A DNA stretch of 64,000 bases. It comes from Candidatus Adlerbacteria bacterium (lineage in GTDB: Bacteria > Patescibacteriota > Minisyncoccia > Phycocordibacterales > SBAW01). The stretch lies in the NCBI GenBank assembly GCA_037135035.1, contig JBAXLB010000002.1:4993-68992 (forward strand). The letters run 5' to 3'. The first letter of the stretch is position 1. Every line of letters starts with the position of its first letter. Shown here piece by piece: positions 8,097 through 9,253 of this stretch. The translations under genes and the position numbers were made by a program. The notes beneath the pieces are model-generated. The model was not told the origin of the DNA, made no database searches, and worked only from the letters and a program-made list of their open reading frames with translations.

Positions 8097-8369
8097 ATGA
8101 ACAAACAAGATATAGCAGAAAAAGTGCACGGAGTCCTTGGCGGAACCAAGGCCGATGCAGAACGTGCCGTTGAAACTATGATAGACACCATCGTTGCCTC
8201 TTTAAAGAAAGGCGAAGATGTTTCTATCGCAGGTTTGGGCATCTTTAAGACAAAAATGCGTGCAGCACGCACCGCCCGCAACCCGCGCACTGGCGCAACC
8301 GTACAGGTTGCCGCAATGACAGTGCCTAAGTTCCAGGCTGCAAAAGCACTCAAAGAAGCAGTAAAATAG
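8097..8369 (+). CDS. hup: DNA-binding protein HU
   Basis: 90 aa. HU/IHF fold signature (GLGIFKTKMRAARTARNPRTGATVQV). Strong terminator downstream. Confidence 0.92.
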   Translation: MNKQDIAEKVHGVLGGTKADAERAVETMIDTIVASLKKGEDVSIAGLGIFKTKMRAARTARNPRTGATVQVAAMTVPKFQAAKALKEAVK

Positions 8370-8413
8370 GTAGCATTTCCAATGCGCCTGCCAGCCTTAG
8401 GCTGGTTTGAAGC

Positions 8414-8444
8414 AAAAACACCGCCCTTGGGGCGGTGTTTTTGC
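8414..8444 (+). terminator. intrinsic terminator after hup
   Basis: ACACCGCCC-ttgg-GGCGGTGT stem followed by TTTTTG. Confidence 0.8.
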
Positions 8445-8519
8445 TTAAGAACTTTTACATATAGCCGCTAAACTAGTTGTACCCAAACTTCATTGACCCA
8501 ACACACTAGATGATATAGA

Positions 8520-9194
8520 GTGTATCCATACACGCCCCAGCTAGCCGCAAGGTCCGCTGGGGTTGTTCGTGCCCAAATCTGCTACAATAGCGGACACGTG
8601 GAGACAATTTTACTCATAGACGGAGAGAATTTTAAGGGCAAAATCCGCTCTGTGTTCAAAGACACAAAGAAGGACAAACCCGTGTGGCACGAATACGACT
8701 TTAAGGGTCTGCTTGATAAAGTGTTGAAAGATATTCCTCTCGATAGAAAGGTCTTTTACTTTGCTCGTATTAAAGAACACGATGATAGCAAAGAAAAATC
8801 AAAACAGTTAGTTGAGGAGCAACGCCAACTCAAAACCCATCTGGAGAAGCAGGGTTTTGAGGTTATTTTGAGCGGTCGAGTACGTGGGCAAATGGAAGAA
8901 GGTCAAAGCGGAAAAAAGGTACTTGTATTCAAAGAAAAAGGCGTTGATGTAAAAATCGCCGTCGACATGGTGAGCTTGGCGTGCGATAAGAAAGTTAAAG
9001 AAATAATACTTGGGAGCTCCGATTCAGACTTGCAACCCGCTATCAAAGAAGTTCGCGACAGAAAAATAAGCTGCGTATATCTCGGCTTCGAGGCACAGCC
9101 AAATAAAGGTCTTTCGTTTACCACCAGTAGAACCCTTTTAATACGCAACTCGGAGATTTTGGAATTTGAGAAAACACAGCAGACTCTCATTTAA
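8520..9194 (+). CDS. NYN-domain (LabA-like) protein, paralog 2
   Basis: 224-aa ORF. NYN motifs LLIDGENF and GSSDSD. The true start may be the GTG near 8598 (VETILLIDGENF). The stop codon abuts the hup 3'-end duplicate. Confidence 0.65.
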   Translation: MYPYTPQLAARSAGVVRAQICYNSGHVETILLIDGENFKGKIRSVFKDTKKDKPVWHEYDFKGLLDKVLKDIPLDRKVFYFARIKEHDDSKEKSKQLVEEQRQLKTHLEKQGFEVILSGRVRGQMEEGQSGKKVLVFKEKGVDVKIAVDMVSLACDKKVKEIILGSSDSDLQPAIKEVRDRKISCVYLGFEAQPNKGLSFTTSRTLLIRNSEILEFEKTQQTLI

Positions 9195-9253
9195 ACCCAC
9201 GCACCGGCGCAACCGTACAGGTTGCCGCAATGACAGTGCCTAAGTTCCAGGCT
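9194..9253 (+). repeat. 60-bp duplicate of the hup 3' coding end (8280..8339). It differs only by synonymous changes and stays in frame to a stop
   Basis: Direct repeat with 57/60 identity. The two mismatches in the coding part are synonymous (CCG>CCA, ACT>ACC). It fills exactly the spacer between the NYN stop and the convergent hydroxylase stop. Confidence 0.8.

Follow-up and report, generated by a model that had tools for sequence, protein, structure and literature searches.

A NYN/LabA gene cassette beside hup in Candidatus Adlerbacteria and the probable remnant of a long target duplication at its end

In the stretch of DNA analyzed here (64,000 nucleotides, hereafter the window), an intact hup gene, a single gene of the NYN/LabA family and a convergent hydroxylase gene are accompanied by a direct repeat, one copy of which lies within hup and the other where the NYN gene and the hydroxylase gene meet. 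The features of this locus are as follows:

8097..8369, plus strand: hup, intact, encoding an HU family DNA-binding protein of 90 amino acids (Pfam PF00216 Bac_DNA_binding, E=1.6e-28) and using repeat copy A
8280..8342, plus strand: repeat copy A (upstream copy), in frame with hup and covering its codons 62-82
8343..8449, plus strand: native hup tail (last 8 codons and stop), 3'-UTR hairpin and intrinsic terminator
8390-8406, plus strand: conserved 3'-UTR hairpin of hup
8410-8446, plus strand: intrinsic terminator of hup (inverted repeat 17/17), followed by a T-run
8450..9193, plus strand: inserted NYN cassette, about 744 bp, absent between hup and hydroxylase in the relatives L084-L087
8477-8485, in the cassette: degenerate DnaA-box-like motif (TTATCCACA-like box)
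8493-8498, in the cassette: predicted promoter -35 element (promoter scan)
8516-8521, in the cassette: predicted promoter -10 element (promoter scan)
8535..8562, plus strand: 5' hairpin with GNRA loop (CCCCAGC-TAGCC-GCAA-GGTCC-GCTGGGG), then a T-rich run
8580-8588, in the cassette: extended -10-like TGCTACAAT
8598..9194, plus strand: NYN/LabA-family gene, 198 amino acids, GTG start at 8598 (Pfam PF01936)
9194..9256, plus strand: repeat copy B (downstream copy), remnant of hup codons 62-82, without function
9252..9977, minus strand: convergent gene of the Asp/Asn beta-hydroxylase family (Pfam PF05118, E=9.5e-15)

The two copies of the direct repeat (8280-8342 and 9194-9256) are 63 nt long and identical at 60 of 63 positions. 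A first-pass annotation of this DNA had recognized the repeat correctly, but its figure of 57/60 identical positions is wrong: over the same 60-nt coordinates we count 58/60 (96.7%). A core of 48 nt is free of differences between the copies; no match to it is expected by chance (100 shuffles of the 64-kb window), and a search for further copies, as the annotation had suggested, returned exactly these two occurrences within the window. As had also been stated, the final A of the NYN stop codon (TAA, 9192-9194) is at once the first base of copy B, which is open in frame up to a stop of its own (NPRTGATVQVAAMTVPKFQATA*). Its reported end at the hydroxylase stop is right insofar as this minus-strand codon (9252-9254) falls within the last 5 nt of copy B, but the repeat runs on to 9256. 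Likewise, the divergence of the copies is silent only in part: The two mismatches within the 60-mer are synonymous, whereas the third (G8340 versus A9254) exchanges alanine for threonine in the hup frame, and this G-to-A difference within copy B creates the TAG stop of the hydroxylase gene. The purifying selection on copy B that had been read from a synonymous-only divergence cannot be upheld, because only two sites are concerned, one of which (ACC to ACT) is changed in the live hup copy, and because the third, B-specific change is non-synonymous. A synonymous change is what one expects in a live gene; the exchange of ACC for ACT thus lends no support to selection on copy B. Copy B has every synonymous state that is specific to hup of this lineage, and at the ACC/ACT site it still has the ancestral ACC; it was therefore copied from hup of this very lineage.

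The NYN gene is the sole open reading frame of the cassette, and its stop codon is formed at the junction with copy B. Its product matches PF01936 with 57.1 bits (cut-off 24.2, E=3.9e-15) and has a PIN-like α/β fold resembling solved NYN domains. Among 34 homologues, D8, E10/N11, D123, D142 and D144 are invariant and D117 is conserved in at least 90%; the window protein has all of them and with them the acidic residues that, as judged from sequence, putatively bind metal in this family. Family, fold and acidic active-site residues are shared with the LabA-like NYN proteins (PF01936; structure 2QIP; MARF1 NYN domain), whose known or predicted roles lie in RNA processing, unlike the DNA mobility that we propose below for the cassette; a comprehensive survey of the NYN family lists no link to DNA mobility (PMC5499597). 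Within the cassette, Pfam finds only the NYN domain and NCBIfam finds nothing, which agrees with the earlier statement that the insert is devoid of an integrase: neither a DDE, HUH, Ser, Tyr or DEDD transposase nor an integrase or recombinase was detected in it. Searches for a reverse transcriptase in the unit, for terminal inverted repeats at the ends of the cassette block and for an NYN homologue in viral contigs were negative as well.

Upstream of the gene, a left margin of 31 nt precedes the promoter parts, and homology to the closest NYN loci (L004/L005) extends over 8481/8488-9173. The 5' hairpin folds with z=-3.5 and is supported by covariation across 67 sequences: 91.6% of cells are paired, compensatory double changes occur in 4 of 11 pairs, and this level was reached by 0/500 shuffles. 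No Rfam 15 family matches the hairpin at E≤1 over 8525-8600; on the hairpin and terminator region, Rfam yielded only sub-threshold chance matches, which fall on the terminator. Another NYN gene (7215-7736) lies on the other side of hup. It has no flanking repeats and is unrelated beyond the fold to the cassette gene (E=0.26); a tandem [NYN-hup] duplication was therefore rejected.

The history of the locus can be read from its relatives. The hup product is 100% identical to an entry named 'HU family DNA-binding protein [Candidatus Adlerbacteria bacterium]', and the gene is collinear with hup of L085/L088. In the relatives L084-L087 (protein identity to the window 98% for HU and 85% for RNase Y), RNase Y ... 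hup faces the group hydroxylase-YcaO-nitroreductase, and the interval between hup and hydroxylase contains no NYN gene. The comparison of hup loci that the first-pass annotation had called for thus points to a lineage-specific insertion. Nucleotide homology between the window and these relatives is continuous over 8022-8449 at 82.5% identity and ends there, at the hydroxylase stop. The hup tail, hairpin and terminator (8343-8449, which fold with z=-6.2) are thus collinear with relatives that have no NYN gene and are therefore native, so that the ancestral arrangement consisted of hup, the shared terminator and then the hydroxylase gene on the opposite strand. Consequently, the insertion point lies after the terminator and not inside hup, and copy B represents target sequence that was duplicated. 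The hydroxylase is only 39% identical to the protein of the syntenic gene in L085, for which reason the right junction is not defined at the nucleotide level. An exactly matching empty site was not found in any strain or species examined: All that exact-protein look-ups returned was this arrangement once more or contigs that break off at the repeat, a scan of JGI metagenomes with the hup core returned only the L085/L086 contigs, and a search for closer empty sites by way of the hydroxylase gave only 6 homologues (the best at 55% and 51% identity), none of them usable, those with DNA to inspect lying in other contexts.

We then compared the NYN loci of 80 GTDB species of Paceibacteria (species representatives). 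The cassette forms a discrete unit at unrelated loci across Paceibacteria: The NYN unit adjoins hup in 0 of the 80 other species loci, has no conserved neighbors, and the largest neighbor family around it is common to only 7 loci. In some pairs of species, 85-95% nucleotide identity is confined to the NYN unit while the flanks are unrelated, the shared block setting in about 100-160 nt ahead of the start and ending between -8 and +46 nt past the stop; in L041/L048, for example, 774 nt of the unit are 94.8% identical. The protein is 75-92% identical across Paceibacteria, there is one NYN copy per locus set and per 64-kb window, and the differing sites between species are clear. Identical NYN proteins, sampled from many metagenomes, invariably had the same surroundings, and movement in progress was thus not observed. 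The GC content of the cassette correlates with that of the host (r=0.76), as one would expect of a resident of long standing whose moves remain within lineages.

In many of these species, duplicated ends of host genes, different for each locus, lie on both sides of the cassette, and on one side the interrupted gene is intact. Bracketing direct repeats were detected at 13/73 NYN loci versus 1/670 control windows in the same loci, and a direct-repeat score of at least 20 was obtained in 18/75 NYN loci (a count that includes the window itself and the overlap artefact L063) versus 2/75 in the reverse-complement control. Altogether, duplicated host sequence brackets the cassette in at least 14 other Paceibacteria species, which bears out the suggestion of an "otherwise unusual insertion" made in the first-pass annotation. 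Each repeat is specific to its locus and has exactly two copies there except in L059 (a dispersed hairpin repeat with three copies) and L053 (paralogous gene N-termini with four copies), neither of which we accept as a target duplication; the cases L054 and L063 were discarded as self-overlaps. The repeats correspond to host gene ends, with one copy part of an intact gene: the 3' end and terminator of ribosomal protein S7 (rpsG) in L056, the 5' ends of PIF1 helicase in L035, MurD in L050 and HIT in L069, and the 3' end of a TrxB-like gene in L009.

The geometry of these repeats resembles that of the window. Across the repeat-bearing loci the downstream copy begins -8 to +25 nt from the NYN stop, which itself lies within the repeat in L056, L059, L069 and the window. 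The copies are 705-820 bp apart in other species; in the window, the 851 bp between them comprise the 744 bp of the cassette, a size that falls within this range, plus the 107 bp of native hup tail and terminator. The bracketing duplications are long and differ in length from locus to locus (27-136 nt, with 63 nt retained in the window), the left margin of the cassette lies 13-68 nt upstream of the -35 element, and its right end varies around the stop. Neither a consensus nor a cleavage motif was found at the duplication borders or cassette ends; such imprecise ends, together with the lack of terminal inverted repeats, fit poorly with an enzyme that recognizes defined ends. About 80% of the NYN loci have no flanking repeat, which is expected if the relics decay but is no proof thereof, and among the loci examined there was no empty site for the other repeat-bearing cases.

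On this basis, we consider it fairly likely that copy B is the remnant of a long target duplication that arose when a self-contained NYN/LabA cassette (8450-9193) was inserted after the hup terminator. The duplicated target probably measured 170 bp (8280-8449), of which 107 bp were later lost. In the proposed sequence of events, the cassette would have entered between the hup terminator and the convergent hydroxylase stop codon; breaks in the two strands, separated by about 170 nt (at 8279/8280 and 8449/8450), or a template switch of equivalent effect that re-copied this stretch, and subsequent fill-in would have duplicated 8280-8449 on both sides of the cassette. The upstream copy would have stayed with hup, while the hydroxylase gene would have continued to find its stop in the downstream one. 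From the latter, the hup tail and terminator would later have been lost in a 107-bp deletion, leaving the 63-nt relic, whereupon the G-to-A change at 9254 would have restored an immediate hydroxylase stop. This additional deletion has to be assumed because, on the left, duplication and cassette are not immediately adjacent. As to what catalyzed the move, we favor, albeit weakly and as a guess, an action on structured DNA of the PIN-like nuclease that the cassette itself encodes; alternatively, a host recombination or replication process may have acted on the NYN gene.

In the latter case the cassette might be an ordinary essential host gene that is relocated passively by template switching or illegitimate recombination, selection keeping the surviving copy, and we regard this as possible, though with the odds clearly against it. 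Its imprecise ends without terminal repeats, the single copy per genome, the very high conservation of the protein and a GC content that tracks the host are all in line with such a passenger, and the DnaA-box-like motif and regulated-looking leader suggest a housekeeping role. There is also a parallel in Arabidopsis, where non-transposon genes that have transposed lie between direct repeats, most of them of genic origin, with homology to the target site (Woodhouse et al. 2010, PMC2869330). There, too, a single ordinary-looking gene appears at a new site between genic direct repeats; that case, however, concerns eukaryotes and many gene families with a circular recombination product as proposed intermediate, whereas here one bacterial gene is affected repeatedly. 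A general process of this kind should bracket other genes as well, yet only a single one of the control windows carries such a repeat. Moreover, the inserted block is in most cases trimmed tightly to one gene unit.

Two further explanations detach copy B from the arrival of the NYN gene. According to the first, it is a decayed second hup paralogue or the trace of an old tandem duplication: HU paralogues are common in bacteria, and copy B is in frame and 95% identical to hup. We consider this unlikely, since the sequences outside the repeat share no significant homology on either side (their local alignments score no better than shuffles), no relative examined has a second hup at this locus, and unrelated host genes bracket the NYN unit with the same geometry elsewhere. 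In addition, the ends of copy B coincide with the NYN stop on the left and the hydroxylase stop on the right, which indicates junctions rather than gradual decay. According to the second, copy B is filler DNA that was copied from the nearby hup when a hypervariable hydroxylase-YcaO island was replaced, independently of the NYN insertion. The island to the right of hup is indeed far more divergent from the relatives (39% identity for the hydroxylase, 27% for YcaO) than HU and RNase Y, which places a recombination boundary at the hydroxylase stop, coinciding with the end of copy B. Such a replacement would leave unexplained both why copy B starts exactly at the NYN stop and why more than 12 other species display the same geometry with other host genes; we therefore judge it quite improbable.

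The first-pass annotation had itself offered a model in which a DNA segment integrates into the hup 3' end and regenerates the gene end; spelled out, an element would target an att-like site and restore hup with its own copy of the gene end, copy B being the displaced original. In its favor, a direct repeat brackets a single-gene insert, and the downstream copy reads in frame to a stop. The sequence that follows copy A, however, is the native hup tail and terminator shared with relatives without the insert; it was not supplied by the element. A displaced end should furthermore be complete, whereas copy B has neither the last 8 codons nor the terminator; an integrase or recombinase is absent, and other species carry the same cassette at entirely different genes, which speaks against a fixed att-like site. 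This model is consequently very improbable. An assembly artefact, that is a chimeric join or mis-resolved repeat, can be regarded as practically negligible: Although the window stems from a metagenome assembly and two short contigs (L120, L121) stop within or beside the repeat, the arrangement of hup, NYN gene and repeat recurs in contigs of two further assemblies (ERZ27300054 and ERZ27300023; three independent assemblies altogether), in which both junctions are reproduced (L002, with 1 mismatch in 10 kb, and L003), copies A and B differ at 3 positions, and the contig names k141_* of these assemblies presumably denote a final k of 141 in MEGAHIT, which exceeds the length of the repeat.

With copy B most plausibly the scar of a target duplication, the cassette may be set against known systems. 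Like an insertion sequence, it is a sub-kilobase unit with one nuclease-fold gene that is found at unrelated sites and bracketed by duplicated target, the duplication being long and variable; it differs in having NYN instead of a DDE, HUH, Ser, Tyr or DEDD transposase domain, in its imprecise ends without terminal inverted repeats, in its single copy per genome and in a protein conserved like that of a core gene. Insertion sequences moreover generate fixed duplications of 2-15 bp, as opposed to the variable 27-136 nt (inferred 170 here) of the cassette. Duplications far longer than those of classical transposases are also known from casposons and CRISPR spacer integration, where Cas1-type integrases duplicate a target of 14-40 bp by attacking the two strands many bases apart, followed by fill-in, to which the cassette may bear some likeness; there, however, Cas1 is required and a molecular ruler fixes the length, whereas the cassette has no Cas1 and its duplications vary several-fold. 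Non-LTR retrotransposons, which move by target-primed reverse transcription, share the variable duplications, a fairly constant 3' end by the ORF stop and a variable 5' margin, but the cassette has no reverse transcriptase and includes an upstream promoter and a DnaA-box-like motif, which a transcript-derived copy should lack. Genomic islands at gene 3' ends are likewise bracketed by a direct repeat of the gene's 3' part and leave the gene intact; the cassette differs in lacking a recombinase and a fixed target, and its intact gene end is native and not element-borne. Finally, the homing-type insertion that had been considered finds no support, as the unit belongs to no known homing-endonuclease family: Free-standing homing endonuclease genes encode LAGLIDADG, HNH, GIY-YIG, His-Cys box or PD-(D/E)xK proteins and have one cognate, conserved target that is not duplicated, in contrast to the NYN fold, many unrelated targets and duplications of the cassette.

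The NYN cassette thus has the appearance of a hitherto undescribed kind of mobile unit, and a literature search for NYN proteins in connection with target-site duplications or mobile elements yielded nothing relevant. A bolder version, which we put forward tentatively and hold to be rather doubtful, is that it constitutes an autonomous mobile element of a new class, with a structure-cutting NYN protein, long duplications and functional roles for motif and hairpin. The NYN protein, related to flap nucleases, would cut the strands tens to hundreds of bases apart, candidate targets being bubbles, R-loops or hairpins at gene starts and terminators. The gene unit of about 0.75 kb would then be joined in, and fill-in would restore the end of the interrupted host gene by way of duplications that are long and of varying length. 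The cassette could in this way lie next to essential genes, such as hup, rpsG and murD, without harming them. The DnaA-box-like motif and the 5' hairpin might couple expression or movement to the cell cycle, or might serve as recognition signals.

If the reading of a relocating cassette holds true, the family hitherto annotated only as "NYN domain / LabA-like, function unknown" would be the mark of a discrete unit of DNA that has relocated time and again within the small genomes of Paceibacteria (Candidate Phyla Radiation), and its movement without any known transposase, integrase or reverse transcriptase would represent a new way for a bacterial gene to move, in which long duplications keep neighboring essential genes intact. 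Short in-frame fragments of gene ends such as copy B would have to be regarded as datable insertion scars and not as pseudogenes, and part of the poor conservation of gene order in Paceibacteria would be explained. Even if the gene were relocated passively by the host, the approximately 100-fold enrichment of bracketing repeats around one gene would still call for an explanation. For the protein family as a whole, the finding would connect the NYN/PIN-like fold with DNA mobility for the first time, and bacterial NYN proteins would gain a testable function.

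The NYN-domain gene is bracketed by a direct repeat of 63 nt, of which the upstream copy lies inside hup (copy A, 8280–8342) and the downstream copy follows the NYN gene (copy B, 9194–9256). The copies agree at 60/63 positions, which bears out the bracketing repeat described in the first-pass annotation; over the 60-nt span used there, the identity is 58/60 and not the 57/60 it gave. A 48-nt core does not differ between the copies and occurs only twice in the 64 kb, compared to zero occurrences in shuffled sequences. Copy B starts at the final base of the NYN-domain ORF's stop codon and, read in the hup frame, yields ...KFQATA followed by a stop. 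Its flanks show no resemblance to the corresponding flanks of copy A, with alignment scores at the level of shuffles. The features of the region are:

8097–8369: hup (Pfam Bac_DNA_binding)
8280–8342: copy A, corresponding to hup codons 62–82
8343–8369: native hup end, between copies A and B
8390–8406: 3'-UTR hairpin of hup, between copies A and B
8410–8446: strong intrinsic terminator, between copies A and B
8477–8485: degenerate version of the DnaA-box-like motif (TTATCCACA)
8535–8562: conserved 5' hairpin of the NYN unit, ~8 nt past the predicted NYN transcript start, present at 67 homologous loci
8598: GTG start of the NYN gene (198 aa)
9194–9256: copy B
9252–9977, minus strand: convergent Asp/Asn-hydroxylase-family gene, its TAG stop within the last five bases of copy B

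The GTG at 8598 is almost certainly the true start, as the resulting 198 aa match the length of the homologues. An assembly error, which at first pass had been named as a possible refutation, is ruled out because contigs from two other assemblies reproduce the arrangement, one (L002) with one mismatch to the window in 10.1 kb, the other (L003) at 98.6% identity. The differences in L003, a strain-level contig, amount to 18 positions and one 1-nt indel and are all confined to 8025–8300 (15 of them in 8175–8300, mostly synonymous), and identity is 100% across 8301–9365; this switch points to a recombination breakpoint inside copy A, for which either allele import or gene conversion between the two repeat copies may be responsible.

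The HU protein of the window is identical to HU annotated in a Candidatus Adlerbacteria (Paceibacteria, CPR) genome and 98% identical to that of the contigs L084–L087, which, judging from the 85% identity of RNase Y between them and the window, belong to fairly close relatives. Their gene order is RNase Y, a ParE-type toxin gene, hup, the convergent hydroxylase gene, and YcaO plus a nitroreductase-family gene; comparing the hup locus in relatives, as proposed at first pass, revealed no NYN gene between hup and the hydroxylase gene in any of L084–L087. Nucleotide homology to these contigs is unbroken across 8022–8449, comprising promoter, hup, 3'-UTR hairpin and terminator, and against L085 it ends at the point where the hydroxylase stop of L085 abuts the terminator. 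It follows from this homology to NYN-less relatives that the hup tail and terminator of the window are native and that the extra DNA begins after 8449, not within hup. The earlier suggestion of an att-like element that regenerated the hup end is contradicted by this placement. An empty site for the window insertion was not found at the nucleotide level.

The surroundings of hup are variable. Among L084–L094, the flanking genes differ on both sides even between close relatives (ParE toxin gene, TrmB, prephenate dehydratase, trypsin-like protease, response regulator plus pilus genes), and the hup locus is a hot spot at which gene content changes in general. The cluster at 9252–12623 (hydroxylase, small ORF, SagB-like nitroreductase-family gene, YcaO) is syntenic with L084–L087, with gene order swapped and only 39% identity for the hydroxylase and 27% for YcaO, in contrast to HU and RNase Y, and has the appearance of a hypervariable RiPP-type island next to hup. 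Among 5.8 billion proteins, only 6 relatives of the hydroxylase are detectable. The non-coding stretch after the hup stop (window 8370–8406, L085 6274–6310) is near-identical, hairpin CCAGCCTTAGGCTGG included, while the hup coding sequence is only ~82% identical between these species, and may constitute a conserved 3'-UTR element. Upstream of hup lies a second NYN-domain gene (ORF 7215–7736), unrelated to the cassette gene: matches of L085 to window 7103–7193 and 8020 onward are almost contiguous, so that 7194–8019 is another lineage-specific insertion relative to L085, for which a bracketing repeat could not be found. Yet another NYN paralogue, a distant one, is located at ~35097–35438.

The NYN protein has ~1,900 relatives, of which the best 120 all show at least 74% identity; the source names given among these are all of Paceibacteria or unclassified bacteria. 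In a comparison of 80 species-representative loci, the NYN unit adjoins hup in none, its neighbours have no counterparts among the window genes, and the most widely shared neighbour family occurs in at most 7 of the 80: what is kept is the unit itself. This unit consists of a TTATCCACA-like motif, a promoter (TTGAC-N17-TATAnT), a predicted transcript start at CATACACG, a GNRA-loop hairpin followed by a T-run, the sequence TGnTAnAAT directly before the start codon (closer relatives only), and the NYN ORF. In several species pairs, nucleotide identity of 85–95% is confined to the unit and the flanks are unrelated, with sharp homology edges ~100–160 nt 5' of the start and –8 to +46 nt from the stop; L041 and L048 share 94.8% identity across 774 nt. 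GC content of the unit tracks that of the host (r=0.76), and the unit is absent from viral contigs. The 5' hairpin is supported by covariation (91.6% of cells paired, compensatory double changes in 4/11 pairs, matched by 0 shuffles), has no matching family in Rfam and could act as leader, attenuator or autoregulatory target. As judged by eye from the alignment, the DnaA-box-like motif sits ~8–12 nt 5' of the promoter –35 in most Paceibacteria loci and falls within the relocated block; it is clear in L047, L051, L057, L061, L064, L074 and many others and reversed in L035, L041 and L048. The motif suggests DnaA-linked regulation of the NYN gene.

For each NYN homologue, we compared the DNA just 3' of the gene with the DNA 5' of the same gene. 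In 13/73 loci the gene lies between direct repeats of at least 25 nt, compared to 1/670 control windows elsewhere in the same loci; a more sensitive scan yielded 18/75 (among them the window, and L063 as an overlap artefact) versus 2/75 for the reverse-complement control. The main rival explanation, an essential, DnaA-regulated host gene that was moved passively, leaves this ~100-fold excess over the surroundings unaccounted for and is in our view unlikely. The repeats differ in sequence at every locus, occur in exactly two copies per locus (L059 and L053 left out) and are host sequence, one copy being part of an intact host gene: the last 11 codons and terminator of ribosomal protein S7 (L056), the first few codons of a gene for a PIF1-type helicase (L035), the start of MurD (L050) or of a HIT-family gene (L069), or the end of a thioredoxin-reductase-like gene (L009). 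The geometry is that of the window: the start of the downstream copy falls between –8 and +25 nt relative to the NYN stop, this stop lies inside the repeat in L056, L059, L069 and the window, and the DNA between the copies usually measures 705–820 bp. The window repeat is one case of a recurrent pattern, which is the central result. The first-pass interpretation is partly upheld: its insertion footprint holds, and so does its guess of an unusual element.

L059 and L053 were removed as target duplications, their repeats being dispersed or paralogous. Between L059 and L062, the NYN block is shared along with a hairpin-like repeat on either side of it, while the DNA farther out is not, and L059 has a third copy of the repeat; a dispersed terminator-like repeat is the probable explanation here, not a target duplication. 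Some loci have 1.1–1.2 kb between the flanking repeats: L061 contains an extra small ORF 5' of the NYN gene (4486–4940), and L022 and L033 contain ~300 nt extra 3' of it, which may be neighbouring sequence carried along.

Of the 851 bp that separate copies A and B in the window, 107 bp are native hup tail and terminator; the remaining 744 bp correspond to a cassette of typical size. We infer a two-event history as the simplest: The cassette (8450–9193) would have inserted at the boundary of terminator and hydroxylase stop, duplicating 8280–8449 (170 bp), and a 107-bp deletion would then have cost the downstream copy its tail and terminator. Gene end and terminator are likewise duplicated in L056; the need for the additional deletion is one of the main weaknesses of this reconstruction. 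The hydroxylase frame fits: with a full duplicate it would end ...ATG CCT TAA, the stop falling within the terminator tail just as it does in L085, and after the deletion the frame reads ...ATG CTG TAG, the TAG stemming from a G-to-A difference at 9254. Copy B has all lineage-specific synonymous states of this genome's hup and was therefore copied locally. Moreover, it keeps the ancestral ACC where the live hup now has ACT, which means that the expressed gene itself acquired one of the two silent differences; copy B gives no evidence of the purifying selection that the first-pass annotation had suggested from them.

The loci show that the cassette was inserted, that target sequence was duplicated, that this recurs in many species, and that the cassette ends are imprecise. 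Duplications are long and variable (27–136 nt in clean cases, and presumably 170 nt in the window), and the cassette has no terminal inverted repeats, no conserved border motifs that we could find, and no transposase, integrase or reverse transcriptase, which excludes the classical families. It resembles an insertion sequence as a single-gene unit between copies of a duplicated target, yet fails the defining tests of insertion sequences, att-type integrative islands, homing endonuclease genes and retroelements. Cas1-type integration shares the long duplications and target-primed reverse transcription the variable ones, but the required enzymes are absent. Phenomenologically, the nearest parallel comes from Arabidopsis, in which ordinary genes transpose and are flanked by repeats of genic origin (PMC2869330). 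The observed features are compatible both with widely staggered breaks that would be filled in and with a replicative template switch that would return upstream of its departure point.

PF01936 proteins appear in a comprehensive survey of PIN-like nucleases as functionally uncharacterised; the roles predicted for them there concern RNA, and mobility is not linked to them (PMC5499597). Literature searches that paired NYN with either target-site duplication or mobile elements retrieved nothing relevant, and the broader pattern appears to be undescribed. Because the NYN/LabA fold of the protein is genuine, its acidic residues are intact and 5'-flap nucleases are its next-closest structural relatives, it is conceivable that the NYN protein itself cuts structured DNA.
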